Assembly (NCBI GenBank): GCA_949747775.1
Contig: CATKGX010000102.1
Location: 1-32,000, forward strand
Length of the DNA: 32,000 nucleotides
Origin: an uncultured Clostridia bacterium
Lineage (GTDB): Bacteria > Bacillota > Clostridia > TANB77 > CAG-508
Reading direction: 5' to 3'
Part shown: positions 359-20,575 of the stretch, one piece after another
How positions within the stretch are numbered: the first letter of the stretch is position 1
Layout: each line of letters begins with the position of its first letter
Made by a program: the position numbers and the translations under genes
Notes under the pieces: generated by a model
The model's database searches: none
Told to the model about the DNA's origin: nothing
Seen by the model: only the letters and a program-made list of their open reading frames with translations

Positions 359-1357
359 ATGGAAAAAATTGATATGGAGGTGGACGATTTTCTTTCCTAT
401 TGTGATTATAAAGGACTAGCAACAAAGACAATTAGAAGTTATGACCAAACTTTAAAATTATTTTTGCAATATTTAAAAGATGAATGTAATATTAAAAATT
501 CTAATCAAGTAACAGAATCACATATAAAAAATTATATTGCAAATGTAAAAGAAAGAGGCAAATACACAGTGGTTAGTGATAGTCATAGTAAGAAACAAAA
601 TATTCCAGAGCATAGACGAGATTTTGGAAAAAAAGTGAGTATAGCTACTGTAAATAATTATACTAGAAATATAAGAGTCTATTTTAACTATATGTATGAG
701 AATAGATTAATAAAGATAAATCCTGTACAAAAAGTGAAAGTAATTAAGACACCAAGGAAAGTGAAAGGATATTTAGATGATAAAGAAATGAATAATTTAT
801 TTAAGTGCTTTGATTCTTCTAAATTTCATGAGTACAGAGATTATGTAATTACACAACTTATTTTTGATACTGGAATGCGTTGTGGAGAATGCCTTATGAT
901 AAGAGATGAAACAGATATTAACTTTAATGATAGGAGTATCTTTTTACCTGCTGAAAATACCAAAGGGAAGAAAGATAGATATGTTTTCTTTTCACAAAGT
1001 ATGGCAACTGAACTTAGAAGATGGTTACAGTATAGAGATAGGTATAAAGATAGTGAGTTTTGTTTTTGTACAACAAAAGGAAAAAATCTAGAGGTAAGAA
1101 GTTTTGAAAGTAATTTTACAAAGTATGGAGAAAGGATAGGGAATAAAGATATACATCCACATTTGTTAAGAAACAACTTGGCTAAAAGATTTTTAATGGA
1201 AGGTGGAGATATTTATACATTATCTCAAATATTAGGACATTCAAGTGTAAAAGTAACAGAGGAATCATATTTAGATTTAACGACAGAAAATTTAAGAACT
1301 AAGTATCAGAAATATTCTCCTCTTATGAATTTAAAGAAAGTAGGAGGAAAGAGATAA
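359..1357 (+). CDS. Tyrosine site-specific recombinase / phage-type integrase (XerC/D superfamily)
   Basis: ORF 317-1357. The N-terminal SAM-like core-binding domain begins FLSYCDYKGLATKTIRSYDQTL. Catalytic signature: R in DTGMRCGE, H-x-x-R in HPHLLRNNLAKRF, LGHSSVKVTEESY with the terminal Tyr. I prefer ATG 359 (MEKIDMEV) because GGAGG at 346-350 sits 8 nt upstream, and no RBS precedes 317. Confidence 0.88.
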   Translation: MEKIDMEVDDFLSYCDYKGLATKTIRSYDQTLKLFLQYLKDECNIKNSNQVTESHIKNYIANVKERGKYTVVSDSHSKKQNIPEHRRDFGKKVSIATVNNYTRNIRVYFNYMYENRLIKINPVQKVKVIKTPRKVKGYLDDKEMNNLFKCFDSSKFHEYRDYVITQLIFDTGMRCGECLMIRDETDINFNDRSIFLPAENTKGKKDRYVFFSQSMATELRRWLQYRDRYKDSEFCFCTTKGKNLEVRSFESNFTKYGERIGNKDIHPHLLRNNLAKRFLMEGGDIYTLSQILGHSSVKVTEESYLDLTTENLRTKYQKYSPLMNLKKVGGKR

Positions 1358-1635
1358 TGAAGAAAATATCAGAAGCGGAGTTAAGAGAGTTATTAAAGGA
1401 ATATAGGGAAAAAGAGTTAGAAATAAAATTGGAGGGAGTTATCAGTGGAAATATACATATTGATAAATTAGCATTTGTGATTACTTCTAATAAAATGATT
1501 TTTATAGATGAGAAAGAAGGTATTACAGAATTAAAAATAGAAACATTTATGGTTTACAGTATATTATTTAATGAAAAGAGAAAAACAATAGAAATAAAAT
1601 TAGATAATGATGAAAATATAAGGTTAGACTTGTAA
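1357..1635 (+). CDS. Hypothetical 92-aa protein, translationally coupled to the integrase
   Basis: ATG overlaps the integrase TAA by 1 nt (TAATG). AGGAGG lies about 10 nt upstream. No recognisable motif. Confidence 0.55.
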   Translation: MKKISEAELRELLKEYREKELEIKLEGVISGNIHIDKLAFVITSNKMIFIDEKEGITELKIETFMVYSILFNEKRKTIEIKLDNDENIRLDL

Positions 1636-1637
1636 TC

Positions 1638-1653
1638 ATTGGACTATTGGACT
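1638..1653 (+). repeat. Tandem 8-mer ATTGGACT x2; further TGGACT copies at 1690-1695 (inverted) and 2044-2049
   Basis: Read directly: cATTGGACTATTGGACTg. The inverted copy is cAGTCCAg at 1689-1696, and aacTGGACTc lies at 2041-2050. Confidence 0.6.
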
Positions 1654-1831
1654 GAAATGTAGAAGGTATTGATATACAGAGAAAAATGCAGTCCAGTATA
1701 ATTTCAAAGACCATACTAGAATTAATCCTAATAAAATTATAGAAATATGTTTATTTGCATTGTTTTTTACCCAAAAGTATTGTAAAATATTACCAACCTT
1801 TTTCTAAAAGGTAGAAAGGGGTGAGAACAGG

Positions 1832-2020: not shown

Positions 2021-2183
2021 AGAACGAATGACATCCGCAGAACTGGACTCATCCTAATGTAACTATATAATAGCACATATTCCATTATATGTCAAATATA
2101 AAACTTTAATTCTTTAGATTTTGGTTCAAATGCTAATGAAGTGTTTGTTCTACAGCAATTCGATTGGATGTTGCATAATGTAA

Positions 2184-2212
2184 TTGACAAAATTTATGTT
2201 AAGTGATACAAT
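2184..2212 (+). promoter_or_regulatory. Near-consensus sigma-A promoter with extended -10 for the AAA+/M41 gene
   Basis: TTGACA (2184-2189), 17-nt spacer, TACAAT (2207-2212), with TG at 2204-2205 giving TGnTACAAT. The GAGGAGG RBS lies before ATG 2263. Confidence 0.7.
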
Positions 2213-2262
2213 AAGGGCGTCGTATAATACATACATAAATATAACAAGAGGAGGACAGAAAA

Positions 2263-4242
2263 ATGACTGTTAAAGTTATGTATGATTTGAGGACGCTAGA
2301 GGTTTTTAAACGGGCGCAAAGGTTTTGCACAGAAAATGGTATGGAATCAATTGAGACTTTCGTTTTGTTTTGTGAAATGATGAAAGAGTCTGAATGCGAA
2401 TTTTATGAGTATCTTCAATGTGCAGTTGAGTATGGAAACGAGGATATTGAAGATAGCATGAGGTTTTGTCTAGAAGAACTTGTGGAAGAGAGGCAGAAGA
2501 ATCAAGAACAAGATGGTGATGAATTTTCTATTACAGTAGGTGAAGAAGTTTACAGTTATTGGGTAACCAAAGAATTGAAAGAAATTACAGAACTTGTGGT
2601 AGGAAGGCTCAATATGATGGCTCAACAACTAGAGGAAAATGCTTCGGCATTGGGATTTCCCGAAGATGCAAATGAATGTCATTTGGGTGTTAGTGTTGAT
2701 ACTTTTATGACATGTATTATTGCTATGATGCCAAATGAAGTGGCTAAATTTGTAAGAAGAATGGATCTTACAGTTTCTCAGGTGAAATCAGACTTTTTGT
2801 CGTACGAAGACGAGGAAGATGAAAAGGAAATTGAAGTGAAATTTGACGCTAAAGCAGGACTTCCAAAAGAACTACAGTCATTTCTTACTGTAATGGAAGG
2901 AAGGCCAAATGAAAAAAATCTAATTCTTGGTAGAGATAAAGAGACCAGACAACTTTGGAGCATTATTTCTAAAAGGAATAAGAGAAATGCAATTTTGGTT
3001 GGAGAACCTGGAGTAGGAAAAACTGCTTTGATTCGCAAATTGGCTCAAGATATTGCAAACGGTGATTGTCCAGAAAAATTTAAAGATTACAAAGTTATTT
3101 CTTTGGATATGACAGGAGCTGTAGCAGGAACTATGTATCGTGGGCAAGCTGAAGAGAGGTTTCAGCTGCTAACAAAGTTCTTGCAACAAAATGATAAAGT
3201 CATTTTGTTCATTGATGAAGTTCATACAATGCTAGGAGCGGGGTCGTCTAAAGAAGGAGAACTTGATTTGTCCAATGCGATGAAACCACTTTTGGCAAGT
3301 GACAAGGGAATTGTTATTGGTGCGACAACAACAAGAGAATATATTAGGTTCTTTTCAAAAGACGGAGCTCTGAAGCGTCGTTTTGAAAAGGTAGAAGTGA
3401 AAGAGCCTAGAGCGGAGCAAGTGTACGTAATGATTCGAAATCAAATTGAACGTTTGGAAGAGTACCATGAAGTAAAAATAGACAGAACGGTGGTAAACTT
3501 TATTATTTTTGCAGCTTCGTGCTTCCAGTATGAGACTAAAAATCCAGACAGAACATTGGATCTGATAGATAGGTCTATGGTGGTAGCAAAAGAAGCAGGG
3601 AGAGATACTGTAACCAAAAATGATGTCTTGGAGAACTTCGCGGTTAACTTCGAAAGCTTTAAGAAGATGGACCAAAAGTTTAAGAAATCTACAGCTTGCC
3701 ATGAAGCGGGACACTTTGTTGTTCACGAAATGAGTGGAAGGCTAGTAGACCGCCGTGTGACTGCTATTTCTATTTTGCCAGCAGACTCATATTTGGGAGT
3801 TAATGTATTCGAAAGGACAGACAAAGAAGTTTTTAAAACAATGGACTATTATATTGACTACTTGGCAGAATGCTTGGCGGGTAGAGAAGCAGAAATATTA
3901 ATGAATGTAGAAGCAAAAAATTCAGGTGTAGCAAGTGATTTGGATATGGCTACGAAGCAGGCCTATCAAATTATTACGGAATACGGAATGGTAGAAAACT
4001 ATAATATAGCTTATTTGAATGATGACGAAGTGAAGCTAATAAGCGACAAGACAGTAGAGAAAATTCAAAGTGCTGTTGAAGAGCTTTTAACTAAGGCGCG
4101 TGCAAGAGCTCAAAAGCTACTGTTTGATAACTATAGATTGCTTGAAGATGTTACCAGACAGCTTTTGAAGAAAAAGATGCTTTCCCAAAAAGACTTAGAC
4201 AAAATTGTACGTGATTATAAAAAAACTTGCATAAAAGCGTAA
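2263..4242 (+). CDS. Chimeric soluble protease: Clp_N-like N-terminus + ClpA/B/C-type AAA+ D1 module + FtsH-type peptidase M41 domain (659 aa)
   Basis: The D1 module aligns by eye to ClpB/ClpC D1: LILGRDKETRQLWSIISKRNKRNAILVGEPGVGKTAL (Walker A, 3001-3024). Pore loop is AGTMYRGQAEERF and Walker B is ILFIDEVH (3202-3225), followed by GATTTREY..FSKDGALKRRFEKVEV. C-terminal M41 motifs: HEAGH (3700-3714), LAGREAEIL (third zinc-ligand Glu region) and SGVASDLDMATKQAYQIITEYGM. No transmembrane segment. Confidence 0.85.
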   Translation: MTVKVMYDLRTLEVFKRAQRFCTENGMESIETFVLFCEMMKESECEFYEYLQCAVEYGNEDIEDSMRFCLEELVEERQKNQEQDGDEFSITVGEEVYSYWVTKELKEITELVVGRLNMMAQQLEENASALGFPEDANECHLGVSVDTFMTCIIAMMPNEVAKFVRRMDLTVSQVKSDFLSYEDEEDEKEIEVKFDAKAGLPKELQSFLTVMEGRPNEKNLILGRDKETRQLWSIISKRNKRNAILVGEPGVGKTALIRKLAQDIANGDCPEKFKDYKVISLDMTGAVAGTMYRGQAEERFQLLTKFLQQNDKVILFIDEVHTMLGAGSSKEGELDLSNAMKPLLASDKGIVIGATTTREYIRFFSKDGALKRRFEKVEVKEPRAEQVYVMIRNQIERLEEYHEVKIDRTVVNFIIFAASCFQYETKNPDRTLDLIDRSMVVAKEAGRDTVTKNDVLENFAVNFESFKKMDQKFKKSTACHEAGHFVVHEMSGRLVDRRVTAISILPADSYLGVNVFERTDKEVFKTMDYYIDYLAECLAGREAEILMNVEAKNSGVASDLDMATKQAYQIITEYGMVENYNIAYLNDDEVKLISDKTVEKIQSAVEELLTKARARAQKLLFDNYRLLEDVTRQLLKKKMLSQKDLDKIVRDYKKTCIKA

Positions 4243-4259
4243 CTCAATTATCCTCTTAT

Positions 4260-4293
4260 CCCCATGATGTTAGTTGTCATGGGGAGTTTTTTT
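4260..4293 (+). terminator. Rho-independent terminator of the AAA+/M41 gene
   Basis: CCCCATGA (4260-4267) pairs with TCATGGGG (4277-4284), then AGTTTTTTT. Confidence 0.8.
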
Positions 4294-4295
4294 GC

Positions 4296-4326
4296 TAAAA
4301 AAGCACTAAGTAAAAACTTAGTGCTT
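4296..4326 (-). terminator. Rho-independent terminator of glmS
   Basis: AAGCACTAAG (4301-4310) pairs with CTTAGTGCTT (4317-4326). On the minus strand the stem is followed by TTTTTTAG. Confidence 0.75.
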
Positions 4327-6244: not shown

Positions 6245-6394
6245 AAAAGGTACCCTATTAGATTTGTAAGCTGATATTACTATCAGGTTTTGACTAATAT
6301 TTATGGCAGTAACCTATGCCAAGAAACCATCCGCCGAATATTTCGATTAGTTTCTATCCTCGTCAACACTATTACTTAGTGTCCAGGCGCTTGT
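6245..6394 (-). promoter_or_regulatory. glmS ribozyme (GlcN6P-dependent self-cleaving 5'-UTR element)
   Basis: The minus strand reads caA/GCGCCUGGACACUAAGUAAUAGUGUUGACGAGGAUAGAAACUAAUCGAAAUAUUCGGCGGAUGGUUUCUUGGC... It matches the conserved AGCGCC cleavage site, the P1 hairpin, the GACGAGGA core and the CGGCGGAUG pseudoknot partner. It sits directly upstream of glmS. The 3' boundary is approximate. Confidence 0.9.
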
Positions 6395-6464
6395 AAATAT
6401 AAAATAAATACTCCTTTCTATATAAATTTATTATATTTGTAAAGTCTTTTTTAGTTACCGTATT

Positions 6465-6819: not shown

Positions 6820-8679
6820 ATGTTTGATATAGAAGCGGAACTTAAAAAATTGCCACATAAACCTGGTGTATATATTATGCATGATAAGAATGACAAAATT
6901 ATATATGTAGGAAAAGCAGTTTCATTAAGAAATAGAGTAAGGCAATATTTTAGGAAAAACAATAAAACAAAAAGAATAGAAAATATGGTTTCTTTAATAG
7001 ACCATTTTGAATATATTGTAACAGACAATGAGGCAGAAGCTTTAATTTTGGAATGTAATCTAATAAAAAAGAATATGCCTAAATTTAATGTGCTATTAAA
7101 AGATGACAAAACCTATCCATATATTAAAGTAAATGTAAAGTCTGACTATCCAGACGTATATATTACAAGAAGAATTTTAAATGATGGAGCAAAATACTTT
7201 GGACCTTATGCTTCTCCAGGAGCAGCAAAGGAAATGATTGATTTTATAAAAACAAAGTTTAAAGTAAGGCAATGTAAAACCTTTAAATATAAAGATAGAC
7301 CATGTTTAAATTACCATATAAAAAAATGCATGGGACCCTGTATGGGATATATTTCGAAAGAAGAATATAGAAAGCAAATTAACGAAATTATAGATTTACT
7401 AGATGGTAGAACCGATAAAATGTTAAAACAATTAACAGGGGAAATGAATGAAGCAGCCAAAAATATGGAATATGAAAAAGCAGCCTATTTAAGAGATAAA
7501 AAACTAGCAATAGAAAGAATTACCGAAAGACAAAAGGTTTCTAATATATCAGAAAATGATATTGATGTAATTGGACTAGCCAGAAATGAGCAGCAAGTTT
7601 GCATAGAAATTTTCTTTGTTAGAAAAAGCAAAATGATAGGAAGAGAACATTACTTTTTAAATCATTTAAGTGATGAAGAAGAAAGTGAAATTTTATCAAG
7701 TTTTATGAAACAATATTATATGAATAGACCACTTCTTCCTAATAAAATTATGATAAAGACAGAAATAGAAGATAAAGAATTGATAGAGCAATATTTAAGC
7801 AAAGTTGCAGGCAGGAAAGTAGAAATAAAAACACCACAAAAAGGAGAAAAGCTACGTTTAGTAGAAATGGCAGAAATGAATAGTAGAATTACATTAGAAA
7901 ATAAAGAAAAAGATAAAACTGCAATTTTAACACAGCTAAAAGAAGTATTACAAATGAATAAGATTCCAAGAAAAATTGAAACATATGATATCTCTAACAT
8001 ATCAGGTCAATTTATGGTTGCAGGAATGTGTGTAATGCAAGATGGTGTTATTAAAAAGAACTTATCAAGAAGATTTAAAATAAAAACAGTATTGGGGCAA
8101 GATGACCCAAAATGTATGCATGAAGTTATTACAAGAAGACTAAGACATTCAGTAGATATATTAAACACAAGTAAAACAACAGGATTTGGAAGCTTGCCAG
8201 ATGCCATTTTTGTAGATGGTGGTATTACACAAATAAGAGCAGCAAAAAAAGCCATAGATGATATAGGCAAAGAAATAAAAGAGGCAGAAAAAGCATTAGG
8301 GGTAAATGAGGGACGTAGTAAACCAGAAATTTTAGTTTTTGGAATGGTAAAAGATGATAAGCATACAACAAGAGCTTTAATTAATGAAGCAAGAGAGGAA
8401 ATACCATTACCACAAGATTTAATGAATTTAGTTACAAGATTTCAAGATACTGTTCATGATACAGCAATAGGATATCATAAAAAACTTCGTGATAAAGAAA
8501 TAACAAAATCAGCTTTAGATAATATTTTAGGAATTGGGGAAGTAAAGAAAAAAGAATTATTAAAGAAATTTGGAAGTGTAGAGCAAATTGCAAAAGCAGA
8601 AATTTCCGAGATAAGTAGTATTAACGGAATTACAGAGGAATTAGCAAGAAAAATAAAAGAAAACTTAAATAATTTGTAA
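6820..8679 (+). CDS. uvrC: Excinuclease ABC subunit C
   Basis: 619 aa. N-terminal GIY-YIG domain (PGVYIMHDKNDKIIYVGKA...NRVRQYF), a UVR domain, and a C-terminal RNase H-like and (HhH)2 region (LDNILGIGEVKKKELLKKFGSVEQI). Confidence 0.97.
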   Translation: MFDIEAELKKLPHKPGVYIMHDKNDKIIYVGKAVSLRNRVRQYFRKNNKTKRIENMVSLIDHFEYIVTDNEAEALILECNLIKKNMPKFNVLLKDDKTYPYIKVNVKSDYPDVYITRRILNDGAKYFGPYASPGAAKEMIDFIKTKFKVRQCKTFKYKDRPCLNYHIKKCMGPCMGYISKEEYRKQINEIIDLLDGRTDKMLKQLTGEMNEAAKNMEYEKAAYLRDKKLAIERITERQKVSNISENDIDVIGLARNEQQVCIEIFFVRKSKMIGREHYFLNHLSDEEESEILSSFMKQYYMNRPLLPNKIMIKTEIEDKELIEQYLSKVAGRKVEIKTPQKGEKLRLVEMAEMNSRITLENKEKDKTAILTQLKEVLQMNKIPRKIETYDISNISGQFMVAGMCVMQDGVIKKNLSRRFKIKTVLGQDDPKCMHEVITRRLRHSVDILNTSKTTGFGSLPDAIFVDGGITQIRAAKKAIDDIGKEIKEAEKALGVNEGRSKPEILVFGMVKDDKHTTRALINEAREEIPLPQDLMNLVTRFQDTVHDTAIGYHKKLRDKEITKSALDNILGIGEVKKKELLKKFGSVEQIAKAEISEISSINGITEELARKIKENLNNL

Positions 8680-8992: not shown

Positions 8993-9874
8993 ATGAATGT
9001 GGCAAAAAATTGGGAAGATTACGAAATACTAGATATGGCAAATGGAGAAAAATTAGAAAGATGGAAAGATGTTATTTTAGCAAGACCAGATCCTCAAATT
9101 ATTTGGAGCAATAAGTCTTTTCCAGAAAAGTGGAAAAAAACGAATGCAAGATATATAAGAAGTACAGAAGGAGGAGGTCATTGGGAATATAACAAAAAAA
9201 TGCCAAATAGCTGGCAAGTAAAATACAAAGACTTAACTTTTAATATTAAACCAATGGGATTTAAGCATACAGGACTATTTCCAGAACAAGCAGTTAATTG
9301 GGACTGGATGATAGAAAAAATTCAAAATGCCAAAAGAGAAATAAGTGTATTAAATTTATTTGCTTATACAGGTGGAGCAACAGTAGCTTGTAGCTATGCA
9401 GGGGCAAAAGTTTGCCATGTAGATAGCTCAAAAGGAATGACAACTTGGGCAAAAGAAAATTTAGTATCATCAGGATTACAAAACAGACCAGTTCGCTTTA
9501 TTGTAGATGATGTTGTTAAATTTGTAAATCGTGAAATTCGTAGAGGAAACAAATACGATGCGATTATTATGGATCCACCATCATATGGAAGAGGAACAAA
9601 TGGCGAAGTGTGGAAATTCGAGGAAAATATTGCAGATTTAGTGGAGTTATGTAGTAAGGTTTTATCAGATAAACCATTATTTTTCTTAATTAATTCTTAT
9701 ACAACAGGCATATCAAGCACAGTATTACAAAATATTTTAAGAATGAATATTGGAAAAAAGCATAAAGGCAAACTAAGCTCAGGTGAAATAGGACTTCCTA
9801 TGGCGAATTCAGACTTAATACTTCCTTGTGGTATATTTGGTCGCTGGGAAAGTGAAAAAGGAGCAAATAGATGA
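8993..9874 (+). CDS. Class I SAM-dependent RNA methyltransferase (RlmI/RlmK-like, no PUA domain)
   Basis: FKHTGLFPEQ motif, SAM-binding LNLFAYTGGATVA, and catalytic-region IIMDPPSYGRG. Confidence 0.8.
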   Translation: MNVAKNWEDYEILDMANGEKLERWKDVILARPDPQIIWSNKSFPEKWKKTNARYIRSTEGGGHWEYNKKMPNSWQVKYKDLTFNIKPMGFKHTGLFPEQAVNWDWMIEKIQNAKREISVLNLFAYTGGATVACSYAGAKVCHVDSSKGMTTWAKENLVSSGLQNRPVRFIVDDVVKFVNREIRRGNKYDAIIMDPPSYGRGTNGEVWKFEENIADLVELCSKVLSDKPLFFLINSYTTGISSTVLQNILRMNIGKKHKGKLSSGEIGLPMANSDLILPCGIFGRWESEKGANR

Positions 9875-10558
9875 ACCAATTAAAAGTAATATATGAAGAC
9901 AATCATATCATAGTAGTAGAAAAACCAGTTAATATTCCTTCACAAGGCGACAAAACAGGTGATAAAGATATGCTAACAATAATAAAAGAGTATTTAAAAG
10001 AAAAGTATCATAAACCAGGCAATGTTTATTTAGGGTTAGTGCATCGTTTAGATAGACCTGTTGGAGGCGTTATGGTATTTGCCAAAACTTCTAAAGCAGC
10101 AGCTAGATTAAGTGAGCAAGTACGTGAAAAGGTATTTCAAAAAACATATTTGGTTATTTGCAATGGACAAATGGAAAGCGCGAAGCGGTACGTTAGAAGA
10201 TGATTTACTGAAAAATGAAAAAAGTAATATGAGTAGGGTTGTCAAAAAAGGAACTAAAAATAGCAAATATGCGAAATTAGAATATGAAGTTTTAAAGTAT
10301 GATAAAGAGTTAAATTTATCAGTTTTAAAAATATTATTACATACTGGGAGACATCATCAAATAAGAGTGCAACTATCTAGCCGTGGTCATAGTATTTATG
10401 GCGACCAGAAATATGGTGGAAGAGGGCATGGAAAACAAATTACACTATGGGCATATAAGTTAAAGATTGTTCACCCAGTCACAAAAGAAGAAATGGAGTT
10501 TAAAGCAGTTCCAGAAAAAACAGGAAGTTGGAAGATAATAGAAGATTTAAATGTATAA
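9871..10558 (+). CDS. RluA-family pseudouridine synthase, interrupted (ORFs 9871-10203 and 10112-10558; a +1 shift is needed at CGG 10186-10188)
   Basis: The first ORF carries the catalytic HRLDRPVGGVMVFAKT. The second carries GRHHQIRVQLS..GHSIYGDQKYG. Skipping C10186 joins ...NGQMESAK-GTLEDDLLKNEK into one roughly 228-aa protein. Confidence 0.85.
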
Positions 10559-19315: not shown

Positions 19316-20575
19316 ATGAAAGAAAAAAGCGAAATTATATATAAGGGTATTGAAACAAATGAAGAATATGAAAAAACAATCAAAAAAGTGGTAGAACAAT
19401 GTTTTAAAGTAGAAAATTTGCAAAATACAAATTTATATATGAGCATTACTTTAACAGACCCAGAAGAAATTAAAAGAATAAATAGACAATTTCGAAATAT
19501 AGATAAAGCAACAGATGTCCTTTCTTTTCCTATGTTTGAAAAAGAAGAGATAGAAAAAATAAAAGAAGAGGAAGCACCAAAAAATACGCAAGTACAAGAT
19601 ATTCTAGGTGATATAGTAATTTCTATTCAAAAAGTAGAAGAACAGGCAAAAGAATATGGACATAGCTTTGAAAGAGAACTAGCTTATATGGTAGTACATG
19701 GATTTTATCATTTAATGGGATACGACCATATGATAGAAGAAGATAAAAAGGTCATGAGACAAAAAGAAGAAAATGTACTAGTAAAACTAAACATTGGTAG
19801 AAGTAATGAATTAAGAAAAACAACATCAGAGAAGGATGAAGAAAAAGGAAATCAAACAAAAAATAAGAATTTCCTAGATGCTTGGAAAAATGCAATTAAC
19901 GGAATTATTTATGCAGTAACAACACAAGGCAATGTAAAAAAACAATTAATCATTGCAGTTGCTGTAGTTATTATTAGTTTATTTTTTGAGTTGTCAAAAG
20001 CAGAGTTTCTAATTTTCATGTTCACAATTGTTTTAATTATTTTTGCTGAAATGGTGAACACTGCCATAGAGACAGTAGTAGACTTATATACAGATATATA
20101 TCATCCAAAGGCTAAAATAGCAAAAGATGTAGCAGCAGGTGGTGTAGTCATTACTACAATTAATGCAGTAATTGTTGCATACTTTTTGTTTTTTGATAAG
20201 GTAAGTAATATTGGGTTACAATTTATCAGAAATATAGCCAATTCACCAATCCATTTAGCTTTTGCAGCAGTTATTATAACAATTATAGGGATTCTTTCTC
20301 TAATTGCAATGGCAACAACAAACAAATATAAAGGATTAAATAAGAGCTTTATTCCAAGTGGACATGCAGCTTTAGCCTTTGCTGCAAATACAATTATTTG
20401 GCTAGTTACAGATAATATTGTTATTTTGACATTATCACTTGTGATTGCGCTACTAGCAGCAGAAAGTAGAATTGACTCAAAAATACATAAAACTTCGGAG
20501 GTAATTTTTAGTAGTTGTATTGGAATAATTATGGTACTTATTATTTATGGTTTAGGAACAGTAACACTATTATAA
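19316..20575 (+). CDS. Three-domain fusion: YbeY endoribonuclease + DgkA-type lipid kinase + truncated PAP2 phosphatase
   Basis: YbeY zinc motif HGFYHLMGYDH lies at 19697-19729. The DAGK_prokar region runs NFLDAWKNAINGIIYA...FAEMVNTAIETVVD...AKDVAAGGV. C-terminal PAP2 motifs are PSGH (20354-20365) and SRIDSKIHKTSE (SRxxxxxHxxx[D/E]). It is one uninterrupted 419-aa frame. Confidence 0.8.
   Translation: MKEKSEIIYKGIETNEEYEKTIKKVVEQCFKVENLQNTNLYMSITLTDPEEIKRINRQFRNIDKATDVLSFPMFEKEEIEKIKEEEAPKNTQVQDILGDIVISIQKVEEQAKEYGHSFERELAYMVVHGFYHLMGYDHMIEEDKKVMRQKEENVLVKLNIGRSNELRKTTSEKDEEKGNQTKNKNFLDAWKNAINGIIYAVTTQGNVKKQLIIAVAVVIISLFFELSKAEFLIFMFTIVLIIFAEMVNTAIETVVDLYTDIYHPKAKIAKDVAAGGVVITTINAVIVAYFLFFDKVSNIGLQFIRNIANSPIHLAFAAVIITIIGILSLIAMATTNKYKGLNKSFIPSGHAALAFAANTIIWLVTDNIVILTLSLVIALLAAESRIDSKIHKTSEVIFSSCIGIIMVLIIYGLGTVTLL

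Follow-up and report, generated by a model that had tools for sequence, protein, structure and literature searches.

A soluble fusion of a Clp/Hsp100 D1-type ATPase module and an M41 protease domain in AT-rich gut Clostridia

The usual list of bacterial energy-dependent proteases comprises ClpXP/ClpAP/ClpCP, HslUV, Lon, FtsH, and, in actinobacteria, the proteasome. FtsH and its relatives AFG3L2 and YME1 (TIGR01241) consist of one AAA+ ring C-terminally fused to an M41 domain with HExxH, GRxAE, a downstream Asp, and C-terminal helices. Class I Clp/Hsp100 proteins (ClpA/C/E/B; TIGR02639 and TIGR03346) carry an N-domain, a D1 ring, and a D2 ring that bears the ClpP-docking loop. LonA is a soluble homo-oligomer whose single chain carries a recognition domain at the N terminus, one AAA+ ring, and a protease domain of the Ser-Lys type; its ATPase belongs to another AAA+ clade. 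The protein described here is encoded by an open reading frame (ORF) at positions 2263 to 4242 of the forward strand of a 32,000-nucleotide stretch of contig CATKGX010000102.1 (the window), from an uncultured Clostridia bacterium. It joins a diverged Clp_N-type N-domain, a single Clp/Hsp100 D1-type AAA+ module, and an FtsH-type M41 zinc-metalloprotease domain in one soluble chain, and it is probably a ClpP-independent, self-compartmentalizing ATP-dependent zinc metalloprotease. It is a member of neither FtsH nor class I Clp because defining features of both fail (no anchor and the wrong AAA clade in the first case, no D2 ring in the second) and is an uncharacterized AAA+ protease variant.

Domain architecture and comparison with described systems

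The coding sequence (2263 to 4242, + strand) is complete from its ATG start and encodes 659 amino acids (aa), with a mass of 75.8 kDa and a pI of 5.05. The N-domain (2263 to 2817, aa 1 to 185) consists of two diverged Clp_N-type helical repeats with long helices and a beta-hairpin insert at aa 86 to 101. It is followed by an acidic flexible linker and pre-D1 segment (2818 to 2907, aa 186 to 215), where the predicted local distance difference test score (pLDDT) of the structural model is <50 at aa 185 to 197. The large subdomain of the Clp/Hsp100 D1-type AAA+ module occupies 2908 to 3414 (aa 216 to 384), and the small subdomain, AAA_lid_9, occupies 3415 to 3666 (aa 385 to 468); the latter is contiguous, lacks an M-domain coiled-coil insertion, and contains a family-specific motif, NPDRTLDLID. 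The M41 zinc-metalloprotease domain completes the chain (3667 to 4239, aa 469 to 659), with HEAGH, GREAE, and D559 followed by C-terminal helices.

This succession of a Clp_N-like N-domain, a Clp D1 module, and an M41 domain had been proposed by a sequence-only reading and was confirmed, by Pfam and NCBIfam profiles for D1, lid, and M41 and by fold for the N-domain. Pfam matches were obtained to AAA (residues 244 to 377, E = 4.8e-16), AAA_lid_9 (385 to 475, 28.2 bits; cutoff, 22.8), and Peptidase_M41 (469 to 648, E = 1.8e-24, 87 bits; cutoff, 29.9), the last spanning profile positions 3 to 191 of 191. On the ATPase half, the NCBIfam models for ClpA (218 bits, residues 171 to 454), ClpB (212 bits), and ClpV1 (198 bits, residues 16 to 438) scored well above FtsH_fam, which reached 89 bits only. 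Every NCBIfam score was well below the full-length family cutoff (e.g., 218 versus 993 for ClpA and 89 versus 600 for FtsH_fam), and the protein therefore belongs to no NCBIfam family. Comparison of hidden Markov models (HMMs) favored no single Clp subfamily (ClpC, 185 bits; ClpE, 178; ClpA, 177; ClpB, 177). The window protein gave no match to Pfam PF02861 (Clp_N), for which six relatives have a precomputed match; in the HMM comparison, the alignment with ClpC starts within N-repeat 2 of ClpC.

All listed catalytic motifs were found intact, as the sequence-only reading had it. In the ATPase, these were Walker A (GEPGVGKT, residues 247 to 254), the pore loop (MYRG, 291 to 294, with Y292), Walker B (ILFIDE, 314 to 319, with D318 and E319), sensor-1 (IGATT, 352 to 356), and the Arg fingers (LKRRF, 370 to 374, with R372 and R373). 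In the M41 domain, they were HEAGH (480 to 484), GREAE (540 to 544), GVASDLDMATKQAY (555 to 568), and EYGM (573 to 576). The claim that a membrane anchor is lacking was also upheld. No transmembrane (TM) segment was found in the window protein, where the highest Kyte-Doolittle 19-residue mean was 1.35, or in the family alignment, where it was ≤1.56 in all 27 aligned members, and FtsH_ext had no Pfam match in the window protein. There was likewise no Pfam match to AAA_2 or ClpB_D2-small; residues 469 to 659 form the M41 domain in place of a D2 ring, and the protein therefore has no D2-borne ClpP-docking loop.

A full-chain AlphaFold2 model of the monomer, built from the 27-sequence family alignment, had a mean pLDDT of 83 and a predicted template modeling score (pTM) of 0.59, and the N-domain modeled alone had values of 88.7 and 0.85, respectively. 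The 50 best matches of the N-domain model in the PDB were almost exclusively Clp-type N-domains (N-terminal domains of ClpC, ClpC1, and Hsp100, with two SMAX1 entries); matches to stand-alone N-domain chains had TMt values of 0.54 to 0.68, ∼15% identity, and E values from 3e-4. By these models, a Clp_N double-repeat N-domain is present at the fold level only. The D1 part was superposed on D1 of ClpA, ClpC, and ClpC1 with a root mean square deviation of 2.4 to 3.4 Å over ∼260 residues at 35 to 38% identity, and the AAA+ and M41 parts together aligned with FtsH and AFG3L2 over ∼490 columns (TMt up to 0.64). The M41 domain aligned residue by residue and end to end with residues 285 to 467 of Thermus thermophilus FtsH, through the C-terminal helices, with TACHEAGH opposite TAYHEAGH, LAGREAE opposite LAGRAAE, and SGVASD opposite TGAEND. 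D559, which is invariant in the family, aligned to the Asp of the FtsH G-A-x-N/S-D motif and is presumably, from the FtsH crystal structures, the third zinc ligand.

The likeness to FtsH thus extends from the C-terminal M41 domain and its motifs to the predicted arrangement of ATPase and protease, and the hand-over of substrate from ring to chamber would be expected, by analogy, to work as in FtsH. Unlike FtsH, the window protein has neither two TM helices nor an extracytoplasmic/periplasmic domain, it carries a Clp_N-type N-domain, and its ATPase is of the Clp/Hsp100 D1 clade and has AAA_lid_9, whereas that of FtsH belongs to the classical clade with AAA_lid_3. With class I Clp/Hsp100 proteins it shares the fold of the N-domain and a D1 module with near-identical Walker A and B motifs, a KYRG-type pore loop, sensor-1, Arg fingers, and AAA_lid_9, but it lacks the D2 ring, the docking loop for ClpP, and the M-domain insertion, and its protease is fused in cis. 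LonA follows the same design logic, but no sequence relation to Lon beyond generic AAA was found (LonB models, E ∼1e-4 over ∼70 residues). A Clp-type ATPase and an M41 protease are also combined in one locus in the ClpK/ClpG and FtsH gene pairs of heat-resistance plasmids and islands, and in a tblastn search against plasmids, adjacent genes annotated as AAA family ATPase and ftsH were joined into one place covering 66 to 70% of the query. Those pairs are two genes encoding a full two-ring disaggregase and a membrane FtsH, whereas the window protein is one fused soluble chain. In keeping with the claim that no characterized protein has this architecture, no PDB entry shares it, no NCBIfam cutoff was reached, and no description of a Clp-D1/M41 fusion was found in the searchable full-text literature, a source whose coverage excludes most subscription journals.

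Family size, conservation, and divergence

The protein had been called an orphan, and it is not one. In a sequence search of 5.8 billion proteins, all 120 matches listed carried AAA and Peptidase_M41, nearly all of them together with AAA_lid_9 and nearly all with a length of 600 to 690 aa. When the lid and M41 half was searched against 1.84 billion cluster representatives, 105 clusters (50% identity) were found at E ≤ 1e-30 and 364 at E ≤ 1e-10, and the match lay at the C terminus of a protein of ∼600 to 710 aa in nearly all full-length matches. The only names given to relatives in public sources were “ClpA” and “DnaC.” Among the matches listed for a profile search of genome contigs with the full-length alignment, ordinary ClpA/B/C D1 genes dominated and one true family locus was present (L008, “uncultured Clostridia bacterium”). 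The family is small, uncharacterized in the searchable record, and found in AT-rich gut Clostridia. Its M41 domain is only ∼23 to 26% identical to that of any FtsH, from which the fusion is judged to be ancient. Two length variants were also observed. Proteins P0017 and P0019 (923 to 924 aa) have tandem D1-type AAA and AAA_lid_9 modules before M41, and P0276 and P0279 (∼540 aa) lack most of the N-domain and retain a short N-region only.

The family alignment comprised 27 members, down to 37% identity with the window protein. Residues G247, G250 to K253, D318, E319, R372, and R373 of the ATPase and H480, E481, H484, G540, R541, A543, E544, and D559 of the M41 domain were invariant in all 27, and Y292, R293, and G294 of the pore loop were conserved at ≥90%. 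The sensor-1 residues (352 to 356) were likewise invariant or almost so in the family. The N-domain, in contrast, was hypervariable, with a mean pairwise identity of 19% versus 63% for D1.

Divergence of the whole gene was high relative to its neighbors. Among four congeneric species with conserved synteny, GlmS was 84 to 95% identical and UvrC 79 to 91% identical, whereas the protease was 48 to 65% identical and its N-terminal half 30 to 41% identical. Synonymous divergence (dS) of the protease gene was 3 to 4 times that of the flanks (2.0 versus 0.5 to 0.7 between L007, from a sister species, and L096) and varied ∼8-fold along the gene in the comparison of the window with L107 (N-domain, 2.7; D1, 1.5; lid, 0.5; M41, 0.3), although the larger values are saturated and are to be read qualitatively only. 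The gene is under purifying selection. In the same window-L107 pair, the ratio of nonsynonymous to synonymous divergence (dN/dS, or omega) was ∼0.1 overall and 0.04 to 0.09 per domain, and the fast divergence is not simply relaxed constraint. No positive selection was detected, as dN/dS was <1 in every domain; the value of 0.93 for M41 between L097 and L106 rests on few substitutions.

These last two loci, whose flanks are 97 to 100% identical, differed in two sharp tracts within the protease gene, one in the N-domain (80 to 86% identity) and one in the M41 core (93 to 95%). The tracts lie at 6982 to 7381 and 8182 to 8581 of L097 and are separated by blocks with 98.5 to 100% identity, a pattern that points to intragenic recombination with imports from diverged alleles. 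The GC content at third codon positions (GC3) of the protease gene was the highest among the 25 window genes (0.317 versus a median of 0.171). In nine loci from other lineages, GC3 of the family gene was above that of all neighbors in six and near the top in two, and one (L008) had no excess. The excess was typically 1.3 to 3 times the neighbors and was seen in L007, L088 (0.341 versus 0.102), L091, L094, L097 (0.387 versus 0.147), L102, L104, and L105. Candidate causes are throttling of a dangerous enzyme through rare codons, GC-biased gene conversion in a gene prone to recombination, and recurrent foreign input.

Chromosomal locus, expression signals, and mobility

In AT-rich gut Clostridia that carry spo0A, the protease gene is a monocistronic resident of the chromosome and has a conserved promoter of the sigma-A type. 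The promoter (2184 to 2212, + strand) is of the vegetative sigma-A type with an extended −10 element and consists of TTGACA (2184 to 2189), a 17-nucleotide (nt) spacer, and TGnTACAAT (2207 to 2212), with 11 of 12 positions fitting the consensus. Its core and spacer (AATTGACA....TTATGTnAAGTGATAnAAT) were unchanged across six orthologous loci, with the same sequence in L007 and L097. A ribosome-binding site, GAGGAGG (2248 to 2254, + strand), is located 8 nt 5′ of the ATG, and an intrinsic terminator (4259 to 4295, + strand) begins 17 nt past the stop codon with a hairpin (4259 to 4285) that has an 11-bp stem with 5 G-C pairs and is followed by a T-run. The proposal that the gene is self-contained for expression was thereby substantiated. 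No CtsR box was found 5′ of the protease gene, matches being below chance, and no CIRCE element was found.

Other features of the transcript were noted. A palindrome, TTATGC-n4-GCATAA, just 3′ of the −10 element was common to L007, L097, L106, and L108. In the window, a hairpin in the 5′ untranslated region (2219 to 2300; arms, 2230 to 2246 and 2268 to 2284) encloses the Shine-Dalgarno sequence and the start codon, with a minimum free energy of −16.7 kcal/mol (z = −3.7 versus shuffles); it was rejected as a family feature, being weak in L007 and absent in L097, L088, L091, and L105. A second hairpin with a T-run at 4301 to 4326, between the protease terminator and the 3′ end of convergent glmS, is probably the glmS terminator seen from the opposite strand.

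Exact look-ups of the window protein and its GlmS gave no match, and neighborhoods were compared with near-identical cluster members of the window protein and with GlmS homologues as anchors. In the sister species represented by L007, whose flanking proteins are 63 to 90% identical, the homologue starts 107 nt after spo0A without any integrase, and the order downstream equals that of the window (glmS on the opposite strand, uvrC, a methyltransferase gene, and agrB). The order of protease gene, glmS (−), and uvrC was also found in L096, L097/L106, and L108/L109, and the protease gene was next to glmS and uvrC in six congeneric contexts, one of which was found through the GlmS anchor; L108/L109 form an unbiased sample in this respect because they were anchored on a GlmS homologue and not on the protease gene. 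The gene therefore holds a fixed position: all species sampled from one clade have it at this locus, most of them directly after spo0A (L007, L096, L108, L109, and, apart from an insertion, the window species). In L097/L106, an ABC/FtsX transporter gene is located upstream instead of spo0A. The glmS neighborhoods at 82% and 80% GlmS identity had another organization, and the protease gene was not there.

The sequence-only reading had placed the gene as cargo in an integrase island. An integrase does lie upstream, but the segment that holds it (146 to 2183, no strand assigned), between the 3′ end of spo0A (1 to 145) and the promoter, is strain variable and outside the protease gene unit. It contains the tyrosine integrase gene (317 to 1357), a 92-aa ORF (1357 to 1635), and a 32-aa ORF with its own terminator (1832 to 1930). 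In L001, from a strain of the window's own species with 99.4% identity, only 130 aa of the integrase are left, whereas the protease gene is intact; window positions 673 to 1739 are missing, and ∼1.7 kb of unrelated DNA lies between two copies of the 1981-to-2117 segment (L001, 7670 to 9850). The protease gene and its promoter occur without any integrase in L007, L097, L106, L108, and L109. Because the variable segment lies upstream of an invariant promoter, sister loci are free of integrase, and the integrase is truncated in L001, the segment (∼146 to 2183) has been inserted between spo0A and the protease gene, which is its resident neighbor rather than its cargo. This spacer is a strain-level insertion hot spot, and sister species are without any insertion. 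A search for attachment-site repeats bounding the segment gave only short, chance-level repeats in the window; the integrase had no close relative in IMG/VR, and the 92-aa and 32-aa ORFs had no Pfam, PHROG, or PADLOC match.

A role as a defense effector, also proposed from the sequence, was not borne out by surveys of mobile and defense genes. PADLOC (PADLOC-DB 2.0, dated 2023) gave only weak generic AAA matches (mad8, 2.5e-7; TRIP13, 3.4e-7; IetA, 7.8e-5). In tblastn searches of 50,697 phage and 72,556 plasmid records, no record covered ≥80% of the protein, and the matches were separate Clp or FtsH genes. No relative was found among 2.9 million viral contigs with family-specific peptide patterns, BFVD contained no fused counterpart, and the two halves matched two different phage families in PHROGs, with no fused family. 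In nine other lineage contexts, the gene stood alone among ordinary genes (flavodiiron protein, ThiF, CopA, NUDIX, UDG, P-type ATPase, BrkB, and RNase J-like). The sole strong PADLOC match among neighbors was a dGTPase-type HD hydrolase at one locus, and no system partner genes were present.

Some neighbors at individual loci are recorded here as observations. In L091 (9057 to 11765; P0110 lineage), a 902-aa DEAD/Helicase_C protein with weak Cas3-like PADLOC matches only is encoded 166 nt after the protease gene on the same strand, and a variable element with an integrase and Mob_Pre lies beyond it. In L091 and L102, two contexts unrelated to each other, the protease gene is immediately preceded by NUDIX genes.

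Elsewhere the window consists of core chromosome, with uvrC, glmS and its ribozyme, yqfD, ybeY-dgkA, and genes for a HydABC-type hydrogenase; spo0A is present, and GC3 of the flanks is 0.10 to 0.18. The glmS ribozyme (Rfam RF00234, 87 bits; 6246 to 6402, − strand), upstream of glmS, was the sole Rfam match in the window. A 419-aa ORF (19316 to 20575, + strand) joins YbeY endoribonuclease, diacylglycerol kinase, and PAP2 phosphatase, which are usually encoded by separate adjacent genes. The gene for a pseudouridine synthase (PseudoU_synth_2) is divided between two ORFs, adjacent or overlapping, in the window (9871 to 10558), L001 (17609 to 18296), L007 (17539 to 18229), and L108 (324 to 1011). 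The split was seen in every sampled clade member, whereas L110 and L111 have a single ORF of ≥229 aa with the domain, and it may be a conserved (possibly programmed) frameshift or an old pseudogene.

Proposed mode of action and alternative explanations

In the favored reading, the diverged Clp_N-type N-domain on its flexible acidic linker would pick substrates or adaptors. The single Clp/Hsp100 D1-type AAA+ ring, presumably a hexamer, would unfold and thread the substrate by means of the Tyr292 pore loop, Walker A and B, and the Arg fingers, and the polypeptide would enter the covalently attached FtsH-type M41 chamber directly. For cleavage there, H480, H484, and D559 would coordinate a zinc and E481 would serve as the catalytic base, and no ClpP, D2 ring, or membrane would be required. 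Regulated or quality-control proteolysis of cytosolic proteins is the most likely physiological task that we infer.

Some points weigh against this account. The putative hexamer, with its Clp D1 ring coupled to a ring of M41 domains, is modeled at the monomer level only, with a full-chain pTM of 0.59. A classical heat-shock quality-control role is not indicated, because no CtsR or CIRCE operator was found. The syntenic copy in L096 (1273 to 3290) is broken into two overlapping ORFs (1273 to 2148 and 2082 to 3290), through either a frameshift that made it a pseudogene or an error of assembly, and the gene may accordingly be dispensable. Finally, a plain housekeeping role fits poorly with the low identity relative to GlmS, the mosaic tracts, and the family-wide GC3 excess.

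The same evolutionary signature is the only reason to retain the view, unlikely on balance, that the protein is a conflict or defense effector that breaks down proteins of phages or mobile elements or, in an abortive response, of the host, with target recognition by an N-domain under an arms race and alleles swapped at a fixed locus. The contrast in conservation between N-domain and D1, a gene far less conserved and with higher dS than its flanks, mosaic tracts within otherwise 97 to 100% identical genomes, GC3 at or near the top in eight of nine loci of other lineages and highest of all window genes, and an insertion hot spot in the adjoining intergenic site would all fit such a role, and IetAS, which we take to be an ATPase-plus-protease defense pair, offers a precedent, although the IetA match here was weak. 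Against it stand PADLOC matches to generic AAA only, the lack of consistent defense or mobile-element neighbors in nine lineages, and the lack of a fused relative in the phage, plasmid, IMG/VR, or BFVD sets. Unlike typical accessory defense genes, the gene occupies one locus throughout the sampled species of the clade, and dN/dS below 1 in all domains gives no signal of positive selection. The survey of homologues for mobile or defense association thus found largely conserved chromosomal genes without it, which goes largely against the sequence-only reading, and a conflict-type role, kept in view by the fast, mosaic divergence and the GC3 excess, has a low probability. A variant of this idea, to which a similarly low probability was assigned, is that the family is a core-genome, single-gene proteolytic immunity factor, an unrecognized AAA+ protease class in whose recognition domain and protease core genetic conflict maintains diversity through allelic exchange; such a factor might act by destroying proteins of phages or mobile elements, or inhibitors made by these might target it.

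The position after spo0A could instead reflect degradation of sporulation or transition-state regulators by a sporulation-linked regulatory protease, which is quite improbable. Adjacency to spo0A in L007, L096, L108, L109, and, apart from the insertion, the window species, together with a Spo0A_C-domain gene ∼6 kb upstream in the unrelated P0110 context, would be in line with this, and the host is taken to be a spore-former because the window carries yqfD. Adjacency is lost in L097/L106, however, and is not found in the P0105, P0037, L102, L104, L105, and L008 contexts; a terminator and separate promoters divide spo0A from the protease gene, whose promoter is near-consensus sigma-A and not of a sporulation-sigma type. 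That the protein might be a nonproteolytic chaperone or pseudoprotease, or an artifactual or recent chimera from assembly or local fusion, could be suggested by scores far under every curated full-length cutoff and by relatives labeled “ClpA” or “DnaC,” but this is effectively refuted by zinc ligands and a catalytic Glu that are invariant in 27 diverse members, the same architecture on hundreds of independent contigs from many samples, an M41 domain so distant from any FtsH that the fusion must be ancient, and the constraint expressed by an omega of ∼0.1.

Read as a soluble ATP-dependent protease, the family adds a distinct architecture to the known energy-dependent proteases, a motor of the Clp/Hsp100 clade and an M41 protease in one soluble chain. 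It is a natural experiment on whether a nonclassical AAA+ ring can drive an M41 ring and whether FtsH-type proteolysis needs a membrane. M41 proteases also have human homologues that are encoded by disease genes (AFG3L2, SPG7, and YME1L1), and the family may provide a soluble, tractable model of this protease type. The mosaic alleles, raised synonymous divergence, and GC3 excess irrespective of lineage, all at a locus that is fixed and has an invariant promoter, may be signs of a conflict-type function in abundant gut Clostridia.

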